The notes below the pieces were generated by a model, which did no database searches, was not told the DNA's origin, and saw only the letters and a list, made by a program, of their open reading frames with translations. A DNA stretch of 64,000 nt from Comamonas serinivorans. GTDB lineage: Bacteria > Pseudomonadota > Gammaproteobacteria > Burkholderiales > Burkholderiaceae_C. The position numbers were made by a program, and so were the translations under genes. Positions 4,618 to 42,193 of the stretch are shown in pieces (the first letter of the stretch is position 1; each line of letters begins with the position of its first letter). The stretch covers positions 1,096,835 through 1,160,834 of the forward strand of contig NZ_CP021455.1 in assembly GCF_002158865.1 (NCBI RefSeq), given 5' to 3'.

Positions 4618-6603
4618 TCACTCGGGTGAGGGCGTCGGATCAGGGTGCCGCCTGCAGCCGTCAGTCGCCGGCTGCAACAGGTCTTGCACGCGTGCGCGCA
4701 TGGTCTCCAGCGTCTGCGCTTCGGGGGGCATGGCCTCGCCCACGCTCAGGCCCACCGGGCTGAAGGTCCCACGCCGGAATGGCTTGGTCATGGCGCCCGT
4801 GGGTTCGATGCGCGAGAAGTAGCTGCCCCAGAGGTTGGTCAGCGCCATGGGCACCACGGGCACGCTCAGGCCGTCGGCGCGCGCCTGCTCCAGGATCTTC
4901 AGCACCCCGCTCTTGAACGCACCCAGCTCGCCGTCGCGCGTGATGGCGCCTTCGGGGAAGATGGCCAGCAGCTCGCCTTCGCGCAGCACCTGGGCGGCTT
5001 CGACGAAGGCGCGCTCGTAGGCCGCGGGGTCGTCGCGTGCGGGGGCGATGGGGATGGCCTTGGCGAGCTTGAACAGCCAGCCCAGCACGGGCACCTTGAA
5101 GATCTGGTGGTCCATGATGAAGCGGATGGGCCGCGGGCTGGCCGCCATCAGCAGCACGGCGTCGATGAAGCTGACGTGGTTGGCGATGAGCACGGCCGGA
5201 CCGTCGGCCGGGATGTGGTCACGCCCGGTGATGCGGAAGCGGTACACCAGCTTGGTGAGCACCCAGGCGTGAAAGCGCAGCCAGTACTCGGGCACCAGGA
5301 AGAAGATGTAGGCCGCCACCAGCGCATTGGCGATGCCGGTGAACAGGAAGATCTGCGGGATGGAGAAGCCGGCCTGCAGCAGCGCGCCCGCGATCACGGC
5401 CGAGGCGATCATGAACAGCGCGTTGAGGATGTTGTTGGCCGCGATGATGCGCGCGCGGTGCGAGGGCCGGGCGCGCAGCTGGATGAGCGCGTACATGGGC
5501 ACGCTGAACAGGCCGGTGAACATCGACATCAGGCCCAGGTCGGCCATCACGCGCCAGTGCGCGCCCTGTTGCAGAAAGCCGCCCACGTCGAACAGGCCAC
5601 TGGCGGGCGGCGCGGGCAGGCTGCGCGTGGCGAAGAACAGGTCGATGGCGAACACCGTCATGCCGATGGCGCCCACGGGCACCAGCCCGATCTCGACCTG
5701 GTGGCCCGACAGCTTTTCGCACAGCAGCGCCCCCACGCCGATGCCGACCGAGAACACGGCCAGCAGCAGCGAGGCGACGTGGGCGTCGCAGTGCAGCACT
5801 TCTTTGGCAAAGGCCGGAAACTGGCTGAGGAACACAGCGCCGAAGAACCACATCCACGAGATGCCCAGCAGCGAGCGGAACACGGCCAGCTGCTCGTGCG
5901 CCAGGCGCAGGTTGCGCCAGGTTTCGGTCACAGGGTTCCAGTTCACCTGCAAGCCGGGGTCGGTGGCCGGCGACACAGGGATGAACTGCGCCGCAAGCCG
6001 CCCCAGCAGGGCCAGCACCACGCACGAGATGCCCACCCATTCGGGCCCCACCTGCGGCACCACCACCAGCACCCCGCCCACCAGCTGGCCCAGCAAGATG
6101 GCGACGAAGGTGCCCATTTCGACCATGCCGTTGCCGCCCGTCAGTTCGCGCTCGGACAGGTGCTGCGGCAGGTAGGCGAACTTCACCGGGCCGAACAGGG
6201 TGGAGTGCAGGCCCATGAGGAAGGTGCACAGCAGCAGCACCGGCACGTTGGCGCTGAAGAAGCCCCAGGCCGCCAGGGCCATGATGGCCACCTCCAGCCA
6301 TTTGACGAAGCGGATCAGCGCGCGCTTTTCCAGCTTGTCGGCCAGCTGGCCGCTGGTGGCCGAGAACACCAGATAGGGCAGGATGAACAGCGCGCCGATC
6401 ACCAGGCCCGCCATGTCGGCCGGCAGCCAGCTCACCTGCAGCATGTAGGTCACCATCACGGTGAACGCGAACTTGAAGAGGTTGTCGTTCGCGGCGCCGG
6501 CAAACTGGGTCCAAAAAAACGGCGCAAAGCGGCGCTGGCCCAGCAAGGCGAACTGCCCGGAGGGCGCTTGGCCGGCCTGGGCCTGGCGGGTCGATTCGGT
6601 CAT
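4618..6603 (-). CDS. MFS lysophospholipid transporter fused to 1-acyl-glycerol-3-phosphate (PlsC-type) acyltransferase domain
   Basis: 661 aa. N-terminal 12-TM MFS region. C-terminal HVSFIDAV...FPEGAITRDG acyltransferase motifs (HX4D, FPEG). ATG confirmed at 6603 (MTESTRQ). Confidence 0.8.
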   Translation of the reverse strand: MTESTRQAQAGQAPSGQFALLGQRRFAPFFWTQFAGAANDNLFKFAFTVMVTYMLQVSWLPADMAGLVIGALFILPYLVFSATSGQLADKLEKRALIRFVKWLEVAIMALAAWGFFSANVPVLLLCTFLMGLHSTLFGPVKFAYLPQHLSERELTGGNGMVEMGTFVAILLGQLVGGVLVVVPQVGPEWVGISCVVLALLGRLAAQFIPVSPATDPGLQVNWNPVTETWRNLRLAHEQLAVFRSLLGISWMWFFGAVFLSQFPAFAKEVLHCDAHVASLLLAVFSVGIGVGALLCEKLSGHQVEIGLVPVGAIGMTVFAIDLFFATRSLPAPPASGLFDVGGFLQQGAHWRVMADLGLMSMFTGLFSVPMYALIQLRARPSHRARIIAANNILNALFMIASAVIAGALLQAGFSIPQIFLFTGIANALVAAYIFFLVPEYWLRFHAWVLTKLVYRFRITGRDHIPADGPAVLIANHVSFIDAVLLMAASPRPIRFIMDHQIFKVPVLGWLFKLAKAIPIAPARDDPAAYERAFVEAAQVLREGELLAIFPEGAITRDGELGAFKSGVLKILEQARADGLSVPVVPMALTNLWGSYFSRIEPTGAMTKPFRRGTFSPVGLSVGEAMPPEAQTLETMRARVQDLLQPATDGCRRHPDPTPSPE

Positions 6604-6901
6604 GGGGGCTTGGGTCCTGTGACGGCCTGGGGAAATGCGAGTGTGCGGCGCAGATTGTGAAGCCATGGCCGGCCGCACGGCCAGCGCCTGGACAGGCGGC
6701 GACGCCGCCAGGCTTGGTCGGATGCGTCGTCGTCCCCATCGACGCGGCGAACAGCTACGGTGAGTGGAGAGGACCAAGAGGGCAGGCCTGGGGCATTCGC
6801 CTGAGGACAGGGCGGCCACGCCGCCTCGCAGCGTCGCCCGAGGTGCCGGACGCGCGGCGGCCGGTGGACTCGGTGGGCGGCAGCGCGAACGCGACCCGGC
6901 A

Positions 6902-7753
6902 TCAGCGCCGCCGCATGGCCCAGCCGATGGGCACCACCGCCAGCGCCGCCACCGCGTGCTTGAGGCTGTGGCCGGCCACCCAGCCCTGGGTCAGCTCGAA
7001 CACGGCGTGGTCGCCCAGCTCCAGCACCTTGGCGGCGATGTAGGCCAGCACCACCCAAAGCCAGCGCACCCCCAGGCCGTCCGGCCGGTTGGGACTCAGG
7101 CCCAGACCCACCAGCAGCGCCAAGCCGGCGCCTTGCACCAGCGCCCAGGGCGTCATGTTGCCCACCTGCCAAGCCCACAGGGCCGCGCTGGCCGAGGCCA
7201 GCAGCAGCGGCAGCGGCAGCGCGCGACCCAGGCGGGGGCTCACGCGGTCGGCCACAGCCAGGCCGATCACGCCGGCAAAGGCCAGCGACATGCCGAGCCG
7301 GTCCACGGCCAGGCCCGCATCGCCGGGCGCCCAGTGGTAGACGCTGGAGCCCGCGGCCGTGGCGATCAGGCCCAGCACCACCCATCGCACGAGCACCATG
7401 CAAGTATGGTCGGCCATTCGATCATGGATGAAGGTAGATGAACCGATACCCGATGAAAAGATGGCGGCTCGCCGCCACAGCCACAGCGCCGCCAGGACGA
7501 ACGGTGCGTTGCTGAGCACGTCCAGGGCGTGCGGCAGTGCGCCCCAGGCGCGCTGGTCGGCGAAGTCGTGGTAGCCGGCGGGCAAGGGTGCGGCGGGCAG
7601 GCCGGCGGCCAGCACCACGGCGGCCAGCAAGGCCAGCAGCACGAGCCACTCGGCGCGGCGCAAGGGACCGAGGGCAGGGTGGGCGGGTTGGACGACGCCG
7701 GCCACGCCGGTAGACGGGGACGGGCGAGCGGCGGGCGGGCGAGCGTGTGGCAT
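6902..7753 (-). CDS. integral membrane protein (ceramidase-like / unknown)
   Basis: Multiple TM helices, high GC3. Start chosen at ATG 7753 (MPHARPP). Family assignment tentative. Confidence 0.45.
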   Translation of the reverse strand: MPHARPPAARPSPSTGVAGVVQPAHPALGPLRRAEWLVLLALLAAVVLAAGLPAAPLPAGYHDFADQRAWGALPHALDVLSNAPFVLAALWLWRRAAIFSSGIGSSTFIHDRMADHTCMVLVRWVVLGLIATAAGSSVYHWAPGDAGLAVDRLGMSLAFAGVIGLAVADRVSPRLGRALPLPLLLASASAALWAWQVGNMTPWALVQGAGLALLVGLGLSPNRPDGLGVRWLWVVLAYIAAKVLELGDHAVFELTQGWVAGHSLKHAVAALAVVPIGWAMRRR

Positions 7754-7901
7754 TAGGCGCGACAAGGGGTGGACGCAGAAGTGGCCTGCACTGTGCGCAA
7801 GGCGCCGCCAACCGTCGCGTACATTGCGCCTCGGTGGCGCGGCTTCACGCTCAGGGTATCGTCGCACGCGCCCGAACCATCGACACGGAGGGAGGATTTC
7901 G

Positions 7902-8633
7902 ATGAGCACCACGCAGGACCTGGTCACCGCACTCAAACACGAACTGAAGGCCGCGCAGATGACCTATGCGGACCTGGCCAAGGAGCTCGGCATGGCCGAG
8001 TCCAGCGTCAAACGCATGCTGGCCAAAGGCGACATGCCGCTGACCCGCATCGACGCCATCTGCCGTGCGCTCAAGCTCGACTTTGCCGACCTGGCGCGCC
8101 GCGTGGCCGACGCCCAGCCCCTGCTCAGCCAGCTCACGCAGGCCCAGGAGGTGGCCGTGGTGGCGGACAAAAAGCTGCTGCTGTGCGCCATCTGCGTGCT
8201 GAGCCACTGGACGCTGGAGCAGATCTGCGAGGCCTACCGCATCGACGAGCCCGAGTGCATCCGCCACCTGGTGATGCTCGACCGCATCGGCATCATCGAG
8301 CTGCGGCCGCTGAACCGCTACCGCCTGAAGCTGGCCAAGACCTTCCGCTGGCGGCCCAACGGCCCGGTGATGGATTTCTTCCGCGAGAACGTGCTGCTGG
8401 ATTACTACGGCGGCAGCTTCGACCGCGACGACGAGGTGCTGCAGCTGGTGCACGGCACCATCGGCCACAGCATGGGGCCGGTGTTCGTCGAACGCATCCA
8501 GCGCATTGCGCAGGACTTTGCCAAGCAGCACCTGGCCGATCAGAAGCTGCCTGACGACATGCGCGAGGGCTACACCCTGCTGCTGTCCATGCGGCGCTGG
8601 GAATTCGCGGCCTTCACCGCCTTGCGGCGCTGA
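7902..8633 (+). CDS. XRE-family HTH transcriptional regulator
   Basis: N-terminal HTH (TYADLAKELGMAESSVKRMLAKG). ATG 7902 preceded by GGAGGGAGG RBS. Confidence 0.65.
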   Translation: MSTTQDLVTALKHELKAAQMTYADLAKELGMAESSVKRMLAKGDMPLTRIDAICRALKLDFADLARRVADAQPLLSQLTQAQEVAVVADKKLLLCAICVLSHWTLEQICEAYRIDEPECIRHLVMLDRIGIIELRPLNRYRLKLAKTFRWRPNGPVMDFFRENVLLDYYGGSFDRDDEVLQLVHGTIGHSMGPVFVERIQRIAQDFAKQHLADQKLPDDMREGYTLLLSMRRWEFAAFTALRR

Positions 8634-8770
8634 TCGGGGCGCGGCCCTGGACCCGGGTGTGGACCATCCCGCCGGCGGGGGAAGTCGGGCGCCGGGCTGA
8701 CGACCTGCGGGTGCCGCACATCCCGGCAAGGGTGTGAGGTCGCTGCACGGGCCTAGGGTGGAGATGTCGT

Positions 8771-8824
8771 GCAGTATGGGGCGGTCTCCGGTGCAAAGAA
8801 AACGACAGTTGGCGAATACGGGGC
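8771..8824. repeat. SPR family copy (divergent)
   Basis: GCAGTATGGGGCGGTCTCCGGTGCAAAGAAAACGACAGTTGGCGAATACGGGGC. Confidence 0.45.
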
Positions 8825-9263
8825 GAGTGCCGATGAAGCAATCGTGACGGTGGTGGCCCGCAGCTGAGCTGCATTGCAGTCTTGTGGGTCTTGCCCAGTC
8901 GCCCCAGACCAGCGCGGCCGCCAGCGGCCTCGCAGGGCGCTGGCCAGGCCTGCGCGCGGCGTTGAGCATGACGCACCGAGCCGCCAGCGTGTGGTCGCTG
9001 GGGTGTGCCAGAACTGCATTGCAGTCTCATACACAACCTCCAGCCACCGCAAACCGGGTGCGGCCACCTAGACTGGCGCGAGCGGTCAACGGCATGGTGG
9101 GCCCCAGGCCACGTTGAGGTGATACCGGGCCGGCACGAGGGGCTGCATGGCAGTCCCATGAATCGACCCCCAGCACCTGAGCGTGGGCCAGCCCATCGCC
9201 AGACCCAGGTTGCCCGGGCTGCATGCCGGGCGCCCCTCTTTCACCTGTTCCAGCGGAGTTTCC

Positions 9264-9992
9264 ATGAACCCACAGAAAGCTGTGCTCGTCATCGGTGCGG
9301 GCGATGCCACGGGAGGCGCGATTGCCCGCCGCTTTGCGCGCGAGGGCTACATCGCCTGCGTCACGCGCCGCAGCGCCGACAAGCTGCAGCCCCTGGTCGA
9401 GCAGATTCGCGCCGACGGCGGCCAGGCGCATGGCTTTGGCAGCGATGCCCGCCAGGAAGAGGCCATGGCCTCGTTGGTGGCGCACATCGAGCGTGACATC
9501 GCCCCCATCGAGGTGGCGGTGTTCAACATCGGCGCCAACGTGCGCTTTCCCATCACCGAGACCACCGCGCGCGTCTACTTCAAGGTGTGGGAGATGGCCT
9601 GTTTCGCCGGCTTTCTGATGGGACGCGAGGCGGCCAAGGTGATGGTGCCGCGGGGCCGCGGCACCATTCTGTTCACCGGGGCCACGGCCAGCCTGCGGGG
9701 GCGCGACGGGTTCGCGGCCTTTGCCGGCGCCAAGCACGGCTTGCGGGCGCTGGCACAGAGCATGGCGCGCGAGCTGTGGCCGAAGGGCATCCACGTCGCC
9801 CACCCCATCATCGACGGCGCCATCGACACCGACTTCATCCAGAGCAATTTCCCCGAACGCTATGCGACCAAGGCGCAGGACGGCATCGTCAACCCCGAGC
9901 GCATCGCCGAGCTGTACTGGCAGATCCACCAGCAGCCGCGCGACGCCTGGACGCACGAAACCGAGCTGCGGCCCTGGATGGAGCCGTGGTGA
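9264..9992 (+). CDS. SDR family NAD(P)-dependent oxidoreductase
   Basis: TGxxxGxG-like N-terminus (VLVIGAGDATGGAIA) and YxxxK-region motifs. RBS GGAG at 9255. Confidence 0.85.
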   Translation: MNPQKAVLVIGAGDATGGAIARRFAREGYIACVTRRSADKLQPLVEQIRADGGQAHGFGSDARQEEAMASLVAHIERDIAPIEVAVFNIGANVRFPITETTARVYFKVWEMACFAGFLMGREAAKVMVPRGRGTILFTGATASLRGRDGFAAFAGAKHGLRALAQSMARELWPKGIHVAHPIIDGAIDTDFIQSNFPERYATKAQDGIVNPERIAELYWQIHQQPRDAWTHETELRPWMEPW

Positions 9993-11023: not shown

Positions 11024-11437
11024 ATGAGCGACATCCATTACCAGGCCGTGCTGCCCGAGGGCTGGCAGCGCCCGCGCGGTTTTTCGCATGGCGTGGTGGC
11101 CCAGGGCAGCAAGCTGCTGCGCATCGCGGGGCAGATCGGCAGCAAGCCGGACGCGCACGGCGTGGAAGCGGGGCTGGATTTCGGCCAGCAGTGGGAGCGC
11201 GCGCTGGGGAATGTGGTGGCCGTGGTGCGCGCCGCTGGCGGCAGCGCGAGCCACCTGGTGGCGCTGCGCGTCTACGTCACCCGCATGGACGACTTTCGCG
11301 AGCACGGCGCCGCGATCGGCGCGGCCTGGTCCACGCACCTGGGCAAGCACTTTCCGGCCATGACGCTGGTGCAGGTGGCGGGCTTGCTCGATGCCCACGC
11401 CACGGTGGAGATCGAAGCCGAGGCCGTGCTGGCCTGA
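11024..11437 (+). CDS. ridA: RidA/YjgF family enamine/imine deaminase
   Basis: 137 aa with conserved YjgF-family blocks (VYVTRMDDF, TLVQVAGL). RBS AGGAG at 11011. Confidence 0.8.
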   Translation: MSDIHYQAVLPEGWQRPRGFSHGVVAQGSKLLRIAGQIGSKPDAHGVEAGLDFGQQWERALGNVVAVVRAAGGSASHLVALRVYVTRMDDFREHGAAIGAAWSTHLGKHFPAMTLVQVAGLLDAHATVEIEAEAVLA

Positions 11438-11929
11438 ACGCTCGCCACGACCGGCGAGGCGCCGACGTGGCGGTTCGTCGCCATCGCGGGAAGCCCCATG
11501 CGCAGCACCAGGTGCCTGGCTGGGCTTGCAGCACTCGGCACCACCGGGTCATTGGCGTCAACGCCAGAGGTGACCGCCACCAGCTGCCTGTGGTTCAGGC
11601 CCTGGCCGTTCACCAGGCCCATACCGGCTTTGCCGGGGCGGTCTGGGCGATGGTGGATGCTGCGGTGGAGCGCCAGCCGGGAAGCGGAACATCACCTTGT
11701 CCCGACTGCTTCGGCGCAGAGCCATGACGACACAGCTGACGTGCGGGGCGGTGATGCGTGACGCGTGACGATGGCCTGTTGGATCAACAGGCAGCCGAAC
11801 TGCAAATCACCACGGCCACCTCCGCCGCTGAGCAACGGAAGTGTTCGTCATGCGGTGAGCGCGTCTGCGTCTGAGATGTCCACGACCTCCCATGCAATCC
11901 GGGGCCGTCGGCCTGGCCCGGGCGACGTG

Positions 11930-12991
11930 TCAGACAGGGGTGCCTGGCGGCCGCTCGCCCTGGCCGTGTGCAGCCTGGGTTGGCGGGATGTGCTGGGCAT
12001 CGGCGGGGGAGTTTGCGCCAGTTTCCGATGATGTTTCGGGTTCATTGACGTAATACTGCTGGCCGCCACCCGACTCGTAGTAAATGCGTGTGAGCAGCTC
12101 GCCAATCAGGCCGGCGGCGACGAAGGTGATGCCCATCAGCACCAGCATCACGCCGACGATGAGCAGCGGGCGCCCGCCGATGTCGTGACCGAACAGCTTG
12201 AGGAGGAACAGCCAGGCCAGGATGAGGAAACCCGGCGTGGCCAGCCACAGGCCCACGCCCCCGAAGGCGTGCAGCGGGCGCTGGCGGTAGCGCATCAGGA
12301 AGACCATGAGGATCAGGTCCAGGATGACGCGGAAGGTGCGGTCGATGCCGTACTTGGACACGCCGCGTGTGCGGGCGTGGTGGCGCACGGGCACCTCGGT
12401 GATGCGGGCGCCGGCATCGCGCGCCAGCGATGGGATGAAGCGGTGCAGTTCGCCATAAAGGTGGATGCGGTCGATGATGTGCCGCCGGTAGGCCTTGAGC
12501 GCGCAGCCATAGTCGTGCAGCTGCACGCCGGTGGCCTGGGAGATCAGGCGGTTGGCGATTTTGGACGGCAGCTTGCGCGAGAGCGCCGCGTCCTGCCGGT
12601 CCTTGCGCCAGCCCGAGACCATGTCCACGTCGGGATCGGTCTCGAGCCGGTTCAGCAGCAGCGGGATGTCGTCGGGCTCGTTCTGCAGGTCGGCATCCAG
12701 CGTGACCACGTAGCGGCCGCGCACGCGGTCGAAGCCCGCCTGCAGGCCGCTGGACTGGCCGTAGTTGCGGGCCAGCAGCACGGGGCGCAGCCAGGGCCGC
12801 GTGCGGGCCAGCTCGAGCAGCAGCTTGCCGCTGCCGTCGCGGGAGCCGTCGTCCACGGCAATCAGCTCGAACGACAGCGGCTGGCTGCGCATGGCGGCCT
12901 CGATGCGCGTGACCAGGTCGGGCAGGTTGTCCACCTCGTTGTAGATGGGGACGACGATGGAGACCTCAGGGGGTGTGGAAATGGGCTGCAT
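11930..12991 (-). CDS. GT2 family polyprenyl-phosphate glycosyltransferase (ArnC/RgtE-like)
   Basis: VSIVVPIYNE...AVDDGSRD...TLDADLQNEPD motifs of ArnC/DPM-synthase-like GT2 enzymes plus two C-terminal TM helices. Start coordinate uncertain by 1 nt. Confidence 0.8.
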   Translation of the reverse strand: MQPISTPPEVSIVVPIYNEVDNLPDLVTRIEAAMRSQPLSFELIAVDDGSRDGSGKLLLELARTRPWLRPVLLARNYGQSSGLQAGFDRVRGRYVVTLDADLQNEPDDIPLLLNRLETDPDVDMVSGWRKDRQDAALSRKLPSKIANRLISQATGVQLHDYGCALKAYRRHIIDRIHLYGELHRFIPSLARDAGARITEVPVRHHARTRGVSKYGIDRTFRVILDLILMVFLMRYRQRPLHAFGGVGLWLATPGFLILAWLFLLKLFGHDIGGRPLLIVGVMLVLMGITFVAAGLIGELLTRIYYESGGGQQYYVNEPETSSETGANSPADAQHIPPTQAAHGQGERPPGTPV

Positions 12992-13159
12992 GGCGGGTGG
13001 ATGAGGCGGGCGATGACGCATGGGCACGCTGGCGAACCGGCGTCCGGTGTCCTGGCGACAGGCCTGGCGCTGCGGGGCAGGTGGATAATCACCGCAAACG
13101 CCGATTGTGCCCATTCCGAGTTCCGTCGCGCGCTGCGCCACCGCCTGCCGCCCACCTCC

Positions 13160-14752
13160 ATGCCCCGTTCGCCCGCTGCTTCCTCAGACGCCGCCCGTCC
13201 GTCCCCTGCGCAGCGGCCCTGGCTGCAAGCCCTGTACGACAACCCCTGGCCCTGGCTGCTGGCCTTTTTGCTGGCCCACGTGGTGTCGCGCGGCGTGATC
13301 TCAACCGGCATGAAATGGGACGAGTCCGAGCAGATTCTCTGGTCGCAGCAGCTGGCCCTGGGCTATGGCGCGCAGCCGCCGCTCTACACCTGGCTGCAGT
13401 GGGCCGTGATCCAGGTGCTGGGGCCGTCGGTGCTGGCGCTGGCGCTGGTCAAGCACGCGGCCATTGGCCTGACCTATGTGCTGGCCTGGCTGGCCGCGCG
13501 GCAGCTGCTCACGGCGCGCGGTGCCTTCTGGGTCGCCAGCGGGCTGCTGCTGATGCCGCCTTTCGGCTGGAACGCGGTGCGCGACCTGACCCACACCGTG
13601 CTCGTCACGGCGATGGCGCTGGGCCTGTGCGGGGCCGTGCTGCGCCTGGTGCAGGCGCCCAGACCGGGCCACTACGCGCTGGTGGGCCTGTTCTGCGGCC
13701 TGGGCATGATGGCCAAGTACAGCTTTGCCCTGAGCATCGGCGCGTTCTTCGTCGCCTGCCTCACGGTGCCGCAGGCGCGGCGCGCCCTGTTTCAGCGCGG
13801 CTGGTGGCTGGCGCCGCTGGTGGGCCTGCTGATCTTCGCGCCCAACGGCTGGTGGGTGCTGAACCATTGGCACGAGGCCACGGCGGCCACCCTGGACAAG
13901 ATGGAGATCTCGCAGCAGGTGTCGGTCTTCACCGGCGCCGCGAACCTGCTGCAGATCACGGCGTCCACGTTGCTGCTGTGGGCCCTGGTGGTGGTGCTGG
14001 CCTTTCGCGGCCAGCTGCGCGCGCCCTTGCCCGCCGACGCCGATGCCCGCTGGCCCTGGCGCAGCTGGGCCTGGCCGCTGCTGGGGCGCTACCTGCTGTT
14101 CGTCGGCCTGGCCATGGTGGCCATGGTCGTGCTGGGCGATGTGAGCAACTTCAAGGAGCGCTGGCTGCTGCCCCTGGTGGCCGTGGTGCCGTTGGCGTTC
14201 TTCGTCTGGCGCCCGTCGCTGCAGGCCGACGACAACCCGCGCGGCGGCCTGTACACCGGGGCGGTGCTGGTGTTCGCGCTGATCTTCTTCGCCATGGCGA
14301 CGGCGCGGCCCTGGGTGGCCGGTGCACGCAACCAGGACAAGCCCGGCGAGGCCGACGAGCTGACTTTTCCGGTGCCCGAGCTGGCGGCCCGGCTGCGCCA
14401 GGCGGGCTACGACGGGCGTGGCGACATCGTGGGCGCCGACCACATGCTGGCGGCCATGATGCGGTCCGAGTTTCCCCAGGTGCAGGCGCGCGGCTGCGCG
14501 CCTTTGCCAGGTCGCACGCCGGCGGCCTGCGTGGCCCAGGCCCTGCAGCAGGCGCGTGCCACAGGGCGGGGCCTGCTGCTGGTGTCGCGTGCCCGTGACG
14601 CGGGCTGGTGGGCCGCAGTATTGCCCCAGACTGGTTACAAAGAGTACGAGAGCATGGCCATACCTTCTTCCAAAATGCCTGTTGACGCGGCACCGATGCC
14701 GTTCCATTTCGTGTGGGTGCCCCCGCAGACCGTGCCGGGGGCGCAGCCATGA
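13160..14752 (+). CDS. GT39/GT-C family glycosyltransferase (ArnT/RgtA-D-like; lipid A/core glycosylation)
   Basis: Around 530 aa polytopic membrane protein with PMT_2/ArnT-like N-terminus ([17 protein letters not shown]...[12 protein letters not shown]). Divergent from the GT2 gene. Confidence 0.75.
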
Positions 14753-15768
14753 GCACGGTGCTGGTCACCGGCGTGGCGGGCTTCATCGGCATGCATTGCG
14801 CGCGCGAGCTGCTGGGCCAGGGCCACCAGGTCGTGGGCATCGACAACCTCAACGCCTACTACGAGGTCTCGCTCAAGCAAGCGCGGCTGGCCCAGCTGCA
14901 GGCGCACCCGCATGCCGCGAACTTCCGCTTCGAGCGGCTGGACGTGGCCGACCGCGACGGCATGGCCCGGTTGTTCGACGCCACGCGCCCCACGCGCGTG
15001 CTGCACCTGGCCGCCCAGGCCGGCGTGCGCTACTCCATCGACCAGCCCGACGACTACACCGACGCCAACCTGCTGGGCTTTGGCAACGTGCTGCAGAACG
15101 GCCGCCGCCACGCCGTGCAGCACCTGGTGTATGCCAGCAGCTCCAGCGTCTACGGCGGCAACGCCAAGATGCCCTATGCCGAGCGCGATGCCGTCGACCA
15201 CCCCATCAGCTACTACGCGGCCACCAAGAAGGCCAACGAGCTGATGGCGCACACCTACGCCCACCTTTACGGCATGCCGACGACGGGCTTGCGCTTCTTC
15301 ACCGTCTATGGGCCCTGGGGCCGGCCCGACATGGCCTTGTTCAAGTTCACGCGCGCCATGCTGGCGGGCGAGGCCATCGACGTCTACGGCCAGGGCCAGC
15401 TGGTGCGCGACTTCACCTTCATCGACGACATCGTCCAGGGGGTGCTGCGCGTGCTGGACAAACCCGCCACGCCCGATGCCCAGTACGACGCCATGGTGCC
15501 CAATCCGGGAACGAGCACGGCCCCATACCGCATCTTCAACATCGGCAACAGCCAGCCCACGGTGCTGATGGACTACATCGCCGCCATCGAGCGCGCCCTG
15601 GGCGTCACCGCCAACAAACGCATGCTGCCCATTCAGCCGGGCGACATGCAGGCCACTTCGGCCGACACGCGTGCCCTGCGCGACTGGGTCGGCTTCGAGC
15701 CCGGCACGCCCGTGACCGTCGGCGTGCAGCGCTTCGTGGATTGGTACAGGGAGTTTTTCCGCACATGA
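14749..15768 (+). CDS. NAD-dependent epimerase, UDP-glucuronate 4-epimerase family
   Basis: GFIG Rossmann motif and [10 protein letters not shown] (YxxxK). Similar to Cap1J/LpsL-type UDP-GlcA 4-epimerases. ATGA start/stop overlap with upstream GT39 gene. Confidence 0.8.
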
Positions 15769-17135
15769 AAGTCACCGTATTTGGCACCGGCTACGTGGGC
15801 CTGGTGCAGGGGGCCGTGCTGGCCGATGCCGGCCACCACGTGCTCTGCGTGGACGTGGACGCCGACAAGGTGGCGGGCCTCCAGGCCGGCCGCATGCCCA
15901 TCCACGAGCCTGGCCTGGAGGCGCTGGTGCACCGCACCCAGCAGCTCGGCCGGCTGGACTTCACCACCGATGCCGCCGAGGGCGTGCGCCGCAGTCCCGT
16001 CATCTTCCTGGCCGTGGGCACGCCGCCCGACGAGGACGGCAGCGCCGACCTGCAGTACGTGCTGGCCGTCGCGCGCACCATCGCCACGCACATGGATGGC
16101 CCCCGCACCGTCATCAACAAATCGACGGTGCCCGTGGGCACGGCCGACAAGGTGGCGCAGGTGTTGCGCCAGGTGCTGGCCGAGCGCGGTGCCGACCACG
16201 TGTTCGACGTCGTCTCCAACCCCGAATTCCTCAAGGAGGGCGCCGCCGTGGCCGATTGCCAGCGGCCGGACCGCATCATCGTCGGCACCGACAGCCCGCG
16301 GGCCGAAGCCCAGCTGCGCGAGCTGTACGCGCCCTTCAACCGCAACCACGACAAGATCGTGGTGATGGACGTGAAGAGCGCCGAGCTGACCAAGTACGCC
16401 GCCAACGCCATGCTGGCGACCAAGATCAGCTTCATGAACGAGATCGCCAACATCGCCGAGCGCATGGGGGCCGACATCGAGGCCGTGCGCCGCGGCATCG
16501 GCAGCGATCCGCGCATCGGCTACCACTTCATCTACCCCGGGGTGGGCTATGGCGGCAGCTGCTTTCCCAAGGACGTGAAGGCCCTCATCCACACCGCACA
16601 AGAGGCCGGCTTCGAGCCCACGCTGCTCGACGCCGTGGAGGCACGCAACCGCGCCCAGCGCGAGGTGCTGTTCTCGAAGATCAGTGCGCATTACGCGGCC
16701 CGGGGCGGGTCGCTGGCCGGCAAGACCGTCGCCGTCTGGGGCCTGGCCTTCAAGCCCAACACCGACGACATGCGCGAAGCGCCCAGCCGCAACCTGCTGC
16801 AGGCCCTGTGGCAGGCCGGCGCCACCGTGCAGGCGCATGACCCCGTGGCCATGGCCGAGGCCCGCCGCATCTTCGGCGAGCGCCCCGACCTGCGCCTGGT
16901 GGACAGCCCCATGGCCGCGCTGCAGGGGGCCGACTGCCTGGCCATCGTGACCGAGTGGCAGAGCTTTCGCGTGCCCGATTTCGACGAGCTGGCCCAGGCC
17001 CTGACAGACCGCATCGTGTTCGACGGCCGCAACCTGTACGACCCCGCCGTGGTCGCCCGCCACGGGCTGACCTACGTGTCGATCGGTCGGCCGGTGCGCG
17101 GTGAGCCCGCCGGAGACTGGCTGAATCCGGTTTGA
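15765..17135 (+). CDS. ugd: UDP-glucose 6-dehydrogenase
   Basis: [15 protein letters not shown]-terminus, GGSCFPKDV catalytic Cys motif. ATGA overlap with epimerase stop. Confidence 0.9.
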
Positions 17136-17143
17136 ACATCAGC

Positions 17144-17196
17144 CAGTATGGGTTGGTTGCCGTTGATGAAAAAACGGCAATGAGCTTATACCCCCA
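17144..17196. repeat. SPR family copy
   Basis: CAGTATGGGTTGGTTGCCGTTGATGAAAAAACGGCAATGAGCTTATACCCCC. Confidence 0.55.
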
Positions 17197-17219
17197 TTCA
17201 AGATGACACAAGGCAAGCC

Positions 17220-18149
17220 ATGAGCATCGGCCGCAGCATTCGCCTGTTCCTGGTGGACGGGTCTTCCAATGGCCTGCTGACCGCAGAAATCATGAACTGG
17301 ACCGGCCACGTGCTGACCGGTCCGCGCAGCAAGCTGGCCGAGGTGGTGCGGCGGCCCGAGTGCGCGCGCACCGGCATCTACTTCCTGATCGGCCCCGATC
17401 CCGACAACGCCTTGCTGACGCGCGTCTACATCGGTGAATCCGACGATGTGGCGGAGCGCCTCAAGCAGCACAACCGGCCCGAAACCCCGGACGGCAGGGG
17501 CGGCAAGGACTTCTGGGAGCGCGTGTGCCTGGTCACCAGCAAGGACATGAACCTGACCAAGGCGCACGCCAAGTACCTGGAGAGCAAGCTCATCGGCATC
17601 GCCACGGCTGCGGGGCGCTGCGTGGTGTCCAACGGCACGGCGCACGACTACGGGGCGCTGCCCGAGTCCGACCGCGCCGACATGGCGTACTTCCTCGACC
17701 AGATCCGCACCGTGCTGCCCGTGCTGGGCTTCGACTTTCTGCACGAGGCGCGACGGGCGCCGTCCACCTTGCCCGTCCCGCCGGTGGCCGACGCGCAAGG
17801 CTTCGAGATGAGCGTGCCGCGCCATGGCATCCAGGCCTTCGCCAAAGAGGTGGATGGCGAGTTCGTGGTGCAGCAGGGCTCGCGCGCACGCGGCAGCTGG
17901 ATCGGCGGCATCAGCGGCTACCAGGGGCTGTTTGAACAGCTGGTGGCCAGCGGCATCCTGCAGGCCGACGGGGCCGACCACTGCCGGTTTGCCGAGGACC
18001 ACGCCTTCAGCAGCCCCAGTGCCGCCGCGTCGGTGGTGTGCGGCCGCATCGCCAACGGCCGCACCAGCTGGCTGGTGCAAGGCAGCTTGCAAACCTATGC
18101 CGATTGGCAGGACGCCCAGCTCAAGGCCGACGGGGCGCCAGCCGAGTGA
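17220..18149 (+). CDS. GIY-YIG nuclease family protein (DUF4357-type)
   Basis: TGIYFLIG...RVYIGESDDVAERLKQH GIY-YIG core. 309 aa. Confidence 0.7.
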   Translation: MSIGRSIRLFLVDGSSNGLLTAEIMNWTGHVLTGPRSKLAEVVRRPECARTGIYFLIGPDPDNALLTRVYIGESDDVAERLKQHNRPETPDGRGGKDFWERVCLVTSKDMNLTKAHAKYLESKLIGIATAAGRCVVSNGTAHDYGALPESDRADMAYFLDQIRTVLPVLGFDFLHEARRAPSTLPVPPVADAQGFEMSVPRHGIQAFAKEVDGEFVVQQGSRARGSWIGGISGYQGLFEQLVASGILQADGADHCRFAEDHAFSSPSAAASVVCGRIANGRTSWLVQGSLQTYADWQDAQLKADGAPAE

Positions 18150-27512: not shown

Positions 27513-27883
27513 GGCGAGGTCCTTGGCAAAAACCGACGGCTGACGAGGGACGGGCACGGCGGGCATGCCGTGCGCGGGTTCACTGCCCGGCCAGCTTTGC
27601 AAGCCTGGGCGGCCGAGGCTGTGCTTTAGGCGTCAGCGCAGGCCGCAGATGCCGTGCCTGGCCGGTGGCGAACGCCCGCCTGCGGCCGCGGAGCGCGCGG
27701 CGGCCAGGCGGACTAAAATCACCGGCTTCGCACCAAGGAGCGCTGCAGTTGGCCCAGGCCTTGCCTGGCCGGGCCTGTCAGGCTTGGTGCGGAACGTGTC
27801 GCGCCGGCCACGCCTGCGCTGGCGCGTGGTGTCAACGGCGCTCACCTGTTGTGTTGCTTGTCGGTTTTTTGCAGGTGAGTGTG

Positions 27884-30652
<2,769 letters not shown>

Positions 30653-33312: not shown

Positions 33313-34965
33313 ATGAAACCCATTCACGTCATCACCTTCCTGGGCACCCAGCTGGACAGCGGCAACGGTGCCGGCCGCTGGGAGAAGTGGCGGCCCACCG
33401 TGGCGCTGACCCAGCACGAGGACATGGAGGTCGCGCGGCTGGACCTGCTGCTGACCGGGCCCAGCCACCGGGCGCTGGCCGAGCGCGTGCGCGCCGACAT
33501 CGGCACGGTGTCGCCCGCCACCGAGGTCGTGCTGCACGAGTTGGCCGTGGACGATCCCTGGGACTTCGACGTCGTCTACACGCAGCTGTTCGATTGGGCC
33601 CGCGCGCAGGCCTTCGATACCGAGGCCGCGCAGTACTGGGCGCACATCACCACCGGCACGCATGTGGCGCAGATCTGCCTGTTCCTGCTGACCGAGTCGC
33701 GCGTGCTGCCCGGGGTGCTGTGCCAGACCTCGCCGCCCAAGCGGCAGCGCGAGGGCGCGGCCGGTGCCTACACGCTGATCGACCTCGACCTCTCGCGCTA
33801 CGACGCCATCGCCCAGCGCCATGCGGCCGACCAGCGCGATGCAGTGGCCTTCCTGAAAAGCGGCATCGCCACGCGCAATGCGCGCTTCAACGCGCTCATC
33901 GACGAGGTCGAGCGCGTGGCCGTGCGCTCCACCGCGCCGGTGCTGTTCGTGGGGCCCACGGGCGCGGGCAAGTCCTTCCTGGCCCGGCGCATGCACGAGC
34001 TGAAGAAATCGCGCCACCAGATCAACGGCGCCTTCGTCGAAGTCAACTGCGCCACGCTGCGTGGCGACGGCGCGGCCTCGACGCTGTTCGGCCACAAGCG
34101 CGGTGCTTTCACCGGCGCCGCCACCGACCGGCCCGGCCTGCTGCGCGCCGCCGATGGTGGGCTGCTGTTCCTCGACGAAATCGGCGAGCTGGGGGCCGAC
34201 GAGCAGGCCATGCTGCTCATGGCCATCGAAGACAAGCGCTTCTACCCCCTGGGTTCGGACCGCGAGGTGACCAGCGACTTTCAGCTGGTGGCGGGCACCA
34301 ACCGCGACCTGCGCGCCGAGGTCGCCGCGGGGCGGTTTCGCGAAGACCTGTTCTCGCGCATCAACCTGTGGACCTACGAGCTGCCTGGCCTGGCGGGCCG
34401 GCCTGAGGACATCGAACCCAACGTCGACTACCTGCTCACCCGCCATGCGCAAGCCTCGCGCCGCGCGGCCCGCTTCAACGTCGAAGCGCGCCGCGCCTAC
34501 CTGCGCTTTGCGCAAAGCGGCGAAGCGCTGTGGCGCGGCAATTTCCGCGACCTGTATGCCAGCGTGACGCGCCTGGCGACCCTGGCCGAGGGCGGGCGCA
34601 TCACCGAGCCGCTGGTGGTGGCTGAGATCAAACGGCTGCGCTGGATGTGGACGCGCGACAGCGCGGTGGCGGCGCCCGGCGCGCGCGCCTCGGGGGGCTC
34701 GCCGGGGGCGATGGCGGTCGATGCGGCGAGCGTGGACCTGGCCGACTTCTACGACGAAGCGGCCCTGGAGCAGATCGACCTGTTCGACCGCGTGCAGCTG
34801 CAGGGCGTCATCGCGGTGTGCCAGCGCTCGCGCACGCTGTCGGACGCGGGGCGCCAGCTGTACCAGGCCTCGCGGGCGCAACGCGCGGCGTTGAACGATT
34901 CGGACCGCCTGCGCAAGTACCTGGCCAAGTTCAACCTGAGCTGGGACCGCGTCAGCACACGATGA
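33313..34965 (+). CDS. rtcR: sigma-54-dependent transcriptional regulator RtcR (N-terminal CARF-like domain + AAA+ sigma-54 activator + C-terminal HTH)
   Basis: Walker A GPTGAGKS, GAFTGA sigma-54 contact motif, RtcR-specific N-terminal domain (VITFLGTQLD...WRPTVAL), C-terminal HTH. Confidence 0.9.
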   Translation: MKPIHVITFLGTQLDSGNGAGRWEKWRPTVALTQHEDMEVARLDLLLTGPSHRALAERVRADIGTVSPATEVVLHELAVDDPWDFDVVYTQLFDWARAQAFDTEAAQYWAHITTGTHVAQICLFLLTESRVLPGVLCQTSPPKRQREGAAGAYTLIDLDLSRYDAIAQRHAADQRDAVAFLKSGIATRNARFNALIDEVERVAVRSTAPVLFVGPTGAGKSFLARRMHELKKSRHQINGAFVEVNCATLRGDGAASTLFGHKRGAFTGAATDRPGLLRAADGGLLFLDEIGELGADEQAMLLMAIEDKRFYPLGSDREVTSDFQLVAGTNRDLRAEVAAGRFREDLFSRINLWTYELPGLAGRPEDIEPNVDYLLTRHAQASRRAARFNVEARRAYLRFAQSGEALWRGNFRDLYASVTRLATLAEGGRITEPLVVAEIKRLRWMWTRDSAVAAPGARASGGSPGAMAVDAASVDLADFYDEAALEQIDLFDRVQLQGVIAVCQRSRTLSDAGRQLYQASRAQRAALNDSDRLRKYLAKFNLSWDRVSTR

Positions 34966-36058: not shown

Positions 36059-36146
36059 GGGCCCAGGTCTGGGGTGGCGCAAAGCGAGCGCGTCGGACTT
36101 GAATCCGAAGGGTGCTGGTGCAAGTCCAGCCCCCAGACCTGGGCCC
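36059..36146 (+). ncRNA. tRNA-like (Y-RNA-like) structured element with 16-bp acceptor-like stem
   Basis: GGGCCCAGGTCTGGGG (36059-74) pairs perfectly with CCCCAGACCTGGGCCC (36131-46). Interior folds as TG / D-arm GCGC-AAAGCGA-GCGC / G / anticodon-like TCGGA-CTTGAA-TCCGA / variable AGGGT / T-arm GCTGG-TGCAAGT-CCAGC. No CCA. Confidence 0.6.
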
Positions 36147-40828: not shown

Positions 40829-40934
40829 AGTTTGGCTTGCGGTGGCTGAGCCGTGGCGAGGCGCAGGCGCCCTCGACGCCAAGTGCTTGATCCGGCAAGG
40901 GTTTGCGCGGCTCGCCTGTTGATTTGGCGGGGCC

Positions 40935-40950
40935 TGGCACGCCGCGTGCA
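40935..40950 (+). promoter_or_regulatory. sigma-54 promoter TGGCAC-GCCGC-GTGCA upstream of rtcA
   Basis: GG/GC spacing correct, one mismatch at -14. About 38 bp upstream of the rtcA ATG. Confidence 0.6.
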
Positions 40951-40987
40951 ACGAGGATGGCCACACACAACTCAACTGGGAGCACAC

Positions 40988-42193
40988 ATGCCAACCGACG
41001 ACCAGGTGGAGGCGAAGCCGCGTCACCGTGACCCAGCTCGCACGGCCACCGCCGCAGACACCAAAAGCGTGACCGGCGCAGCGCAGACGGGCCGTGGCGC
41101 AGCCATCGAGATCGATGGCTCGCAGGGCGAGGGCGGCGGGCAGATCCTGCGCACGGCGCTGGCCTTGTCCATGATCACCGGCCAGCCGCTGCACCTGCGC
41201 GCCATCCGCGCCAAGCGGCCCAAGCCCGGGCTCATGCGCCAGCACCTGATGTGCGTGCAGGCGGCCGCGCAGGTCAGCGGGGCCCACATCAGCGGGGCCG
41301 AGCTGGGGGCCACCGAGTTGCGCTTCGCGCCGGGCCCGGTGCGGGCGAGCGCCTACGAATTTGCCATGGCCAGCGCAGGCAGCTGCATGCTGGTGCTGCA
41401 GACCGTGCTGCCGGCGTTGATGCTGGCCGATGCCCCCAGCACGCTGGTGCTGCGGGGCGGCACGCACAACCCCATGGCGCCCAGCTTCCACTTTGTGCGC
41501 GATGCCTTTGCGCCGCTGGTGCAGCGCCTGGGCGCCGGCCTGACGCTGCAGCTGCAGCGGCTGGGCTTTTACCCCGCAGGCGGTGGCGAGGTCACGGCCA
41601 CCATCACGCCTGCGGCCCGCCTGACCCCGTTCGACCTGACCGAGCGTGGCGAGCTGCAGCAGGGCGATGCTCTGTGCCTGACGCCGGGGCTGTCGGGGTC
41701 GATCGCGCGCCGCGAGCTGACGGCGCTGGGCCAGGCCATGGGCTGGGGCGAGGACCGCTTGCGCTTTGGCGAGGCCAGGCAGCACGAGGGGCCGGGCAAT
41801 GCCTTGATCGCCCGCCTGCGCTACGCCCACGTGACCGAGGTGTTCGTCGAGCTTGGGGCCCGCAACCTGTCGTCGGAGCAGGTGGCCGGCAAGCTGGTGC
41901 AGGCCATCCGGGCGTTTCAACGCCGGCCAGGTGCCGCGGTGGGCCCACACTTGGCCGACCAGCTGGTGCTGCTGCAGGCCCTGGCCGTGTGGCAGGCCGG
42001 ACGGACCGGCAGCCAGGCGGATGCGCCCCACGCCGATGTGCCCCAGGCGGATGTGCCGCAAGCACGCTTCTCGTGCAGCGAGGTGACCGAGCACTTGCGC
42101 ACCAACTGCGTGGTGATCGAACGCTTTCTGCCCGTGCGCTGCACGCTGACCCAGGGCCCTGTGTCCCGGGTGACGGTGCGCTGGGCGGGGTGA
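40988..42193 (+). CDS. rtcA: RNA 3'-terminal phosphate cyclase
   Basis: IEIDGSQGEGGGQILRTALALSMITGQP, GSAGSC and FYPAGGGEV RtcA signature blocks. About 37-aa N-terminal extension and an internal ADVPQADVPQ duplication. RBS GGGAG at 40977. Confidence 0.85.
   Translation: MPTDDQVEAKPRHRDPARTATAADTKSVTGAAQTGRGAAIEIDGSQGEGGGQILRTALALSMITGQPLHLRAIRAKRPKPGLMRQHLMCVQAAAQVSGAHISGAELGATELRFAPGPVRASAYEFAMASAGSCMLVLQTVLPALMLADAPSTLVLRGGTHNPMAPSFHFVRDAFAPLVQRLGAGLTLQLQRLGFYPAGGGEVTATITPAARLTPFDLTERGELQQGDALCLTPGLSGSIARRELTALGQAMGWGEDRLRFGEARQHEGPGNALIARLRYAHVTEVFVELGARNLSSEQVAGKLVQAIRAFQRRPGAAVGPHLADQLVLLQALAVWQAGRTGSQADAPHADVPQADVPQARFSCSEVTEHLRTNCVVIERFLPVRCTLTQGPVSRVTVRWAG

Follow-up and report, generated by a model that had tools for sequence, protein, structure and literature searches.

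A conserved gene cluster of Comamonadaceae with a predicted role in decorating the cell envelope with a lipid-carried uronic acid

A cluster of four genes was analyzed at positions 11930–17135 of a 64,000-nucleotide stretch of contig NZ_CP021455.1 of Comamonas serinivorans; this whole stretch is here called the window. The predicted products are a family 2 glycosyltransferase (GT2), a membrane glycosyltransferase of the GT-C type, a uridine diphosphate (UDP)-glucuronate 4-epimerase of the short-chain dehydrogenase/reductase (SDR) type, and a UDP-glucose 6-dehydrogenase (Ugd). On balance we lean slightly towards reading the cluster as a conserved module of Comamonadaceae which decorates the envelope with a lipid-carried uronic acid, a reading that is sensible but unproven.

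In the proposed pathway Ugd would oxidize UDP-glucose to UDP-glucuronate (UDP-GlcA), as suggested by strong homology, and the SDR enzyme would epimerize this to UDP-galacturonate (UDP-GalA), as suggested by strong homology together with conserved specificity residues. The GT2, judging from its similarity to ArnC and its gene neighbourhood, would move galacturonic acid (GalA) onto undecaprenyl phosphate on the cytoplasmic face of the membrane. The lipid-linked GalA would then be flipped across the membrane, a step for which the relatives have a candidate of the PF03706 family, the gene being missing at this locus. On the periplasmic face the GT-C, judging from its fold, would pass GalA to the acceptor. 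The most likely acceptor would be lipopolysaccharide (LPS), with GalA placed on the Kdo region of the inner core or on a phosphate of lipid A, and less probably on lipid A that has been dephosphorylated. Since inversion is the rule for GT2 as well as for GT-C enzymes, the final linkage is expected to be alpha. The effect to be expected of the added carboxylates is a stronger cation bridging in the outer membrane, and not polymyxin resistance.

Confirmation of the pathway would add Comamonadaceae, a large family of beta-proteobacteria often met in water, soil and wastewater, to the alpha-proteobacteria and Aquifex as organisms whose LPS is decorated with GalA by way of a lipid carrier. A first function would then also be assigned to an uncharacterized GT-C branch of the PMT_2 proteins, with about 1200 cluster representatives at E ≤ 1e-30.

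Conservation and layout of the cluster

The genome scan with the GT-C family alignment identified 79 loci, which came from Comamonas, Extensimonas, Ottowia, Diaphorobacter, Acidovorax and related metagenome bins. The GT2 gene was divergent from the GT-C gene in 70 of these loci. Downstream of the GT-C gene, the 59 loci with enough sequence included the epimerase gene in 55 cases, the Ugd gene in 53 and both in 50. The arrangement is far beyond chance, and its recurrence in about 70 loci therefore points to a functional link between the genes and to a linkage that is ancient and selected. Identities to the window proteins in the related loci were 67–88% for the GT2, the epimerase and Ugd, and 42–58% for the GT-C; the GT2 alone was 68–88% identical in about 70 syntenic loci. 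Because these identities are kept across genera, all four genes appear to be under selection.

Two or three tandem GT-C paralogs were present inside the cluster in three loci (L057, positions 6419–9500; L063, 6380–9419; L067, 6774–11279), which recalls the situation in Rhizobium, where several GalA transferases are served by one donor. Nine loci (L065, L068, L071 and L074–L079) included unlinked GT-C paralogs with 37–45% identity, located amid housekeeping genes; in L075–L079 the identity of this extra paralog was 37–39%. The contexts of these unlinked paralogs, as well as those of distant family members, were mostly of the housekeeping kind and uninformative on the acceptor.

In the window, which has a G+C content of about 70%, the GT2 gene (11930–12991, minus strand, 353 amino acids) and the GT-C gene (13160–14752, plus strand, 530 amino acids) diverge from an intergenic region of 168 bp (12992–13159), where promoters are presumed from the divergent layout only. 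No sigma-70 consensus match was detected in this region, the promoter and terminator scan gave no signal above the shuffled background, and Rfam found no element within the cluster. The epimerase gene (14749–15768, plus strand, 339 amino acids) starts with an ATG overlapping the GT-C stop codon, and the ugd gene (15765–17135, plus strand, 456 amino acids) with an ATG overlapping the epimerase stop codon.

An earlier note on this DNA, made from the sequence alone, had placed the four genes at these positions with the GT2 and GT-C genes divergent, and had counted three ATGA start/stop overlaps. The genes and the divergent layout were confirmed: five real genes, the fifth being a downstream neighbour, were identified in 11930–18149 by domain matches and by a third-position GC of 0.87–0.98 in the expected frames. 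The number of overlaps had to be corrected, since only two are present, at 14749–14752 (GCCATGAGC) and 15765–15768 (CACATGAAA). Through these two junctions the GT-C, epimerase and Ugd genes are translationally coupled, and both overlaps are also present in the relative L087.

In the C. testosteroni group, ugd is closely followed by opposite-strand genes for a sensor histidine kinase and a response regulator of the OmpR type (clusters c27 and c20; L001, 11903–14102; also L002, L006, L008, L012, L014, L026 and L027). The pair is not present in the window; it could regulate the cluster or lie there by coincidence.

Enzymes of the cluster and the flippase-like gene of its relatives

The steps assigned to Ugd and to the UDP-GlcA 4-epimerase are the well supported part of the predicted pathway. 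Ugd matched all three Pfam domains of its family (PF03721, PF00984 and PF03720), and scored 458 bits against TIGR03026, the cut-off of which is 189.8 bits. Its best PDB matches were the Burkholderia UDP-glucose dehydrogenase structures 2y0e and 2y0c (546 bits, E 6.7e-163), with GDP-mannose dehydrogenase at E 2.9e-58 and UDP-N-acetylmannosamine dehydrogenases at about 1e-42. The three-domain architecture and the closest similarity to characterized UDP-glucose dehydrogenases are those expected of a UDP-glucose 6-dehydrogenase, and the suggestion that this protein makes UDP-GlcA is supported by the match to the solved Burkholderia enzyme.

The epimerase matched PF01370 at 189.5 bits. Its best PDB match was 5u4q of Klebsiella pneumoniae (478 bits, E 1.7e-142), which we take to be the UDP-galacturonate epimerase Uge/Gla, and all other structures were matched at 1e-42 or worse. 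When the protein was aligned to the UDP-glucuronate 4-epimerase of B. cereus (UGAepi; 6zl6), the residues S/T126-S127-S128, Y149, K153, T178 and R185 were found to be conserved. The Arg185 equivalent is situated in a GRPDMA motif, and the UDP-N-acetylglucosamine 4-epimerases WbgU and 10ke, present in the same match list, do not have the RPDMA motif. In the B. cereus enzyme, Arg185, which holds the carboxylate of GalA, and a Thr/Ser network keep the substrate carboxylate in place (PMC12338863). With the catalytic Y-x3-K pair, the Thr/Ser carboxylate pocket and the Arg185 equivalent all retained, the protein has the features of a UGAepi. The earlier proposal of an SDR enzyme converting UDP-GlcA to UDP-GalA is thus supported by both the 5u4q match and the conserved residues.

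The GT2 matched PF00535 at 100.5 bits, and this domain is followed by C-terminal membrane helices. The similarity to E. coli ArnC (38% identity) covered residues 1–317 and included the C-terminal membrane helices, so that the ArnC-like character assigned to the protein in the earlier note holds over its full length. The best NCBIfam match was likewise to ArnC (NF007986), at 226.5 bits and under the equivalog cut-off of 529 bits; because of this difference the GT2 is not considered to be ArnC itself. The best PDB matches were the ArnC structures 9hwj, 9bhc and 8vxh, followed by the cyanobacterial glycosyltransferase sll0501 (5ekp), presumably a GtrB-type polyprenyl-phosphate glucose synthase, and by dolichol-phosphate mannose synthase. 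By its sequence the GT2 is a polyprenyl-phosphate sugar synthase of the ArnC type.

The GT-C was more difficult to place. Its sole Pfam match was PF13231 (PMT_2) at 67.8 bits; it had no match to PF02366 in Pfam, whereas E. coli ArnT scores 211 bits there, and no match in NCBIfam. Nor was any PDB sequence, ArnT included, matched by phmmer or by a profile of 26 family sequences. The hhalign profile–sequence comparison of the GT-C family with E. coli ArnT produced a weak match (probability 75.5%, E 2.4e-5), which covered the catalytic N-terminal half with the first periplasmic loop and the GxxCGxGxMxK segment. In the Foldseek search with the predicted fold, the nearest solved structure was ArnT (E 8.4e-8) and not a protein O-mannosyltransferase (PMT), as Pmt4 of C. 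thermophilum followed at 4.6e-4 and Pmt1-Pmt2 at 2.2e-3. The model has the membrane domain and the small C-terminal periplasmic domain of an ArnT-type fold. The size of the protein, the missing MIR domain and the small C-terminal alpha/beta domain also agree with the ArnT architecture. Neither the MIR nor the PMT_4TMC domain of GT39 proper was found by Pfam. The label GT39/ArnT-like, given to the protein in the earlier note, therefore holds for the nearest solved fold, but is not reflected in any PF02366, NCBIfam or PDB sequence match. That the protein is not a protein O-mannosyltransferase was also indicated by the fold comparison, in which the E-values of the PMTs were worse by orders of magnitude.

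In the family alignment the first loop of the GT-C is highly conserved (S48, W53, D54, E55, Q58, G68-Y69-G70 and Q72-P73-P74), with an invariant acidic motif. A second conserved motif comprises G136-W137, D142, T144 and H145, and the C-terminal domain includes two invariant cysteines. Such conservation agrees with a GT-C active site and with a C-terminal domain predicted to be disulfide-bonded in the periplasm.

The C. serinivorans protein P0001 is 100% identical to the GT-C gene product, but in this public annotation (480 amino acids) the GT-C begins at 13310, which would cut off the first membrane helix. The homologs span 96–98% of the 530-residue form, residues 33–48 include invariant positions, and the structure model has a confident helix at 30–47. 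On these three grounds the start of the gene is placed at 13160. The database entries thus call for two corrections, as the annotated start is too short and the protein is not a transferase of 4-amino-4-deoxy-L-arabinose (Ara4N). Database names of the homologs are generic, such as ArnT family, Ara4N transferase-like or family 39.

By sequence the GT-C belongs to a large uncharacterized branch of the PMT_2 proteins, the wider family including 5818, 2634 and 1197 cluster representatives at E ≤ 1e-3, 1e-10 and 1e-30, respectively. One distant member, the metagenome protein P0210, has a PAP2 lipid phosphatase domain fused to its N-terminal side. Another, in L083 (4635–7503), is located in an operon together with a short GT2 and a protein with the PF07578 domain (lipid A biosynthesis N-terminal domain). 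The fusion and the operon are weak hints that the wider family may act on lipid A-type substrates.

In the relatives a gene of the PF03706 family (LPG_synthase_TM, UPF0104), with a product of about 310 amino acids, was located directly after the GT2 gene on the same strand in 60 of the 61 loci with room for it, and it often shared overlapping codons with the GT2 gene. This companion gene had gone unnoticed in the earlier note. The flippase domain of MprF belongs to PF03706, as do the flippases predicted for the glycolipid operons gpgSDF and hexSDF. By analogy, the protein is a natural candidate for flipping the GT2 product in the relatives.

No PF03706 gene or remnant was detected in 11437–11930 or elsewhere in the window. 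The closest relative found, L089, the GT-C of which is 80% identical, was also without the gene (L089, 1–430), and its GT2 gene is followed by a helix-turn-helix (HTH) gene equivalent to that at 7824–8633 of the window. In L087 (64% identity) the PF03706 gene was present at 4994–5923. As the gene is absent from the window and L089 and present in L087, we conclude that the C. serinivorans lineage has lost it from the locus.

A more specific proposal, which we consider rather improbable, is that a five-gene module of Comamonadaceae (PF03706 flippase, GT2, GT-C, epimerase and Ugd) adds GalA to LPS at a position undescribed in beta-proteobacteria, its stand-alone PF03706/PplT protein flipping an undecaprenyl-phosphate sugar, a role undemonstrated for that family. 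The C. serinivorans lineage would then have lost the flippase gene from the locus with the other four genes intact, and would depend on a substitute flippase or on spontaneous translocation. If the predicted pathway is confirmed, the cluster would offer a clean genetic setting for testing stand-alone PF03706 proteins as flippases of polyprenyl-phosphate sugars.

Known systems, the acceptor and alternative explanations

Functionally the cluster looks like the Rgt system, built from Arn-like parts, and as such it is not a surprise. The Rgt system comprises RgtE and RgtA–D of Rhizobium leguminosarum, RgtF of Mesorhizobium, and the UDP-GlcA 4-epimerase LpsL, and its UDP-GalA is derived from Ugd and an epimerase. 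In the published accounts, which give the locus tags RL1470 (RgtE), RL0684 (RgtD) and mlr0011 (RgtF), polyprenyl-phosphate-GalA is the product of a GT2, and its GalA is added to LPS by GT-C enzymes at the periplasmic face. The same logic is predicted here, and the genes for the supply of UDP-GalA, Ugd and the UDP-GlcA 4-epimerase, are both coupled to the GT-C gene. The likeness, drawn from descriptions of the Rgt system, is one of predicted function. There are also differences: the rgt genes of Rhizobium are scattered, whereas those of Comamonadaceae form one compact cluster; the host is here a beta-proteobacterium, unlike Rhizobium; and most relatives add the flippase-like PF03706 gene. Furthermore, the lipid A GalA transferases of Rhizobium work with the phosphatases LpxE and LpxF, neither of which is found near the Comamonadaceae cluster.

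The enterobacterial ArnC/ArnT/ArnE-ArnF pathway resembles the cluster in its GT2 (38% identity to ArnC) and in ArnT being the best structural match of the GT-C, and both pathways start from UDP-GlcA derived from Ugd. The Arn product is the cationic Ara4N, whereas the product predicted here is anionic and ArnA, ArnB and ArnD are missing. The Arn flippase is the small ArnE/ArnF pair, whereas the candidate in the Comamonadaceae relatives is the PF03706 protein. The GT-C is also outside the Pfam family of ArnT (PF02366; ArnT belongs to CAZy GT83) and is missed by sequence searches with ArnT. As a whole, the cluster falls outside ArnT, ArnC and GT39 proper by sequence membership.

Other systems combine similar parts. 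Bordetella LgmA/LgmB and Francisella FlmF2/FlmK, which place hexosamine on lipid A phosphates, likewise consist of an ArnC-like GT2 and an ArnT-like GT-C that handle a sugar other than Ara4N. Compared by description only, they depend on a deacetylase and attach an amino sugar that is cationic, whereas the Comamonadaceae cluster has no deacetylase and its linked nucleotide-sugar genes point to a uronic acid. In gpgSDF of P. aeruginosa and hexSDF of C. difficile, a stand-alone PF03706/UPF0104 predicted flippase is found beside a lipid-glycosylating transferase, as in 60 of the 61 relatives. These operons differ from the cluster in having a GT4 synthase and a deacetylase, an end-product glycolipid and no GT-C.

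LPS is considered the most likely target because of the analogy with RgtE/RgtA–D of Rhizobium, the only known polyprenyl-phosphate uronic acid system. Several observations weigh against the uronic acid pathway and this target. Five of the 59 syntenic loci, four of them from Extensimonas or a close relative, have the epimerase without an adjoining Ugd gene, three have Ugd without the epimerase (L053, L055 and L066, in which the GT-C gene is directly followed by Ugd), and the Acidovorax soli locus has neither. The flippase-like gene is missing from the C. serinivorans locus itself, and no further LPS genes were present near the cluster in the inspected flanks of the window. The GT-C has diverged from ArnT beyond the reach of sequence searches in PDB and NCBIfam, so that homology cannot give its acceptor, and no experiment on any member of the GT-C family was found in the literature. 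Finally, the one published description of a Comamonas lipid A that was found, for C. testosteroni, a species which carries the cluster (L006, L010 and L012), mentions no GalA, and there are no reports of a uronic acid on the lipid A of Comamonas. Literature searches on uronic acids in the LPS of Comamonadaceae brought up nothing relevant, and no core structure was found.

Lipid A, which the earlier note had offered as an acceptor, is not supported by these results. In Rhizobium, GalA can be placed directly on the lipid A backbone only after dephosphorylation by LpxE/LpxF. A search of the window and of the 79 related loci, thus of the neighbourhood of the cluster only, detected no PAP2 homolog of the LpxE/LpxF type. 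As no PAP2 gene accompanies the cluster and the C. testosteroni lipid A is described without GalA, the inner core or a labile phosphate-linked site is favoured over the lipid A backbone.

The same lipid-carrier chemistry could also serve an acceptor other than LPS, namely a side branch of O-antigen or capsule, the glucans of the periplasm, or a protein located there or at the cell surface, for example pilin. This explanation, although fairly unlikely, survives best. Pairs of GT2 and GT-C serve many different acceptors, the 2634 representatives of the wider GT-C family at E ≤ 1e-10 have varied contexts, and both the lack of an adjoining LPS gene and the GalA-free lipid A of C. testosteroni fit it. 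On the other hand, the only characterized polyprenyl-phosphate uronic acid systems, the Rgt systems of Rhizobium, act on LPS, and the nearest solved fold of the GT-C is that of a lipid A enzyme, ArnT. Two distant family members have the PAP2 fusion and the neighbour with the lipid A biosynthesis N-terminal domain. Moreover, nearly all of the Comamonadaceae examined have the cluster, and such a distribution suits a core feature of the envelope better than a strain-specific antigen.

It is improbable that the transferred sugar is GlcA or a mixture instead of GalA, the epimerase mainly feeding UDP-GalA to other, cytoplasmic glycosyltransferases. The three loci in which Ugd directly follows the GT-C gene would agree with such a role, and the donor specificity of the GT2 is not readable from its sequence. 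The transfer of GalA is better in line with the position of the epimerase between the GT-C and Ugd in 55 of the 59 loci, with the overlapping codons in the window and L087, and with the Extensimonas loci, which retain the epimerase without Ugd.

Still less probable, and indeed very doubtful, is a role of the GT2 in forming a glycolipid as end product, such as a uronosyl phospholipid or diacylglycerol, with the UPF0104 protein as its flippase in the manner of gpgSDF and hexSDF and with a separate role for the GT-C. The translational coupling of the PF03706/UPF0104 gene to the GT2 gene in the relatives speaks for this, as do the terminal glycolipids made by the known UPF0104-linked systems. However, the GT2 is over its full length closest to ArnC, which acts on undecaprenyl phosphate, and GpgS is a GT4 enzyme and not a GT2. 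The GT-C is also co-conserved with the GT2 in 70 loci, and GT-C enzymes use donors linked to polyprenyl phosphate.

Two further readings, lipid A modified with Ara4N and proteins O-mannosylated by a true GT39 system, are highly improbable, as the GT2 reached only 226 bits against the 529-bit ArnC cut-off, the GT-C has no PF02366 match, and no mannose-donor genes are present. The tblastn searches with E. coli ArnA, B, D, E, F and T found none of them in the 64-kb window or in the 79 related loci, the only signal being the generic SDR similarity of the epimerase to ArnA. The Ara4N pathway was rejected on the missing arnA, B, D, E and F, which agrees with the earlier remark that Ara4N is unlikely in the absence of ArnA, ArnB and ArnD. 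A true GT39 protein mannosyltransferase was rejected because PF02366, MIR and PMT_4TMC are all absent and the fold comparison ranks ArnT ahead of the PMTs.

Neighbouring genes and other features of the window

The left flank of the cluster consists of genes for a major facilitator superfamily (MFS)–acyltransferase protein, an HTH protein, an SDR, a DsbA-like protein and RidA, and the right flank of genes for a tetrapyrrole-methylase-family protein, Maf, LysE and histidinol dehydrogenase. None of these is related to LPS.

Directly downstream of the cluster, after a gap of 84 bp from ugd, a GIY-YIG/DUF4357 gene was recognized by its domain match at 17220–18149 on the plus strand, where the earlier note had also seen it. 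It matched the PADLOC candidate phage-defence family PDC-S14 (E 1.1e-125). Of the other syntenic loci, only L087/L088 (67% identity) and L037 of Ottowia flava (70%) likewise have this gene immediately downstream of ugd. As a component of the pathway it was rejected on the basis of the PDC-S14 match and the synteny in few lineages only.

Rfam matches were also located elsewhere in the window. The match to the Burkholderia small RNA Bcj11 (69 bits) at 5794–5915 on the minus strand is situated inside the open reading frame 4618–6819 (minus strand), which encodes an MFS transporter fused to an acyltransferase domain, and it may be an artefact of the coding sequence. An S-adenosylhomocysteine (SAH) riboswitch (48 bits) was found at 27729–27850 on the plus strand, just ahead of a gene for B12-dependent methionine synthase. 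As the riboswitch is inside the longest open reading frame called, 27665–30652, the methionine synthase gene must really start further downstream. A tRNA-like element (Rfam tRNA, 52.8 bits) was detected at 36068–36139 on the plus strand, between an RtcR regulator gene (33313–34965) and an RNA 3'-phosphate cyclase gene (40853–42193). It was reported by ARAGORN as tRNA-??? with an abnormal anticodon, and may belong, as a component of tRNA-like or Y-RNA type, to an rtc operon for RNA repair.

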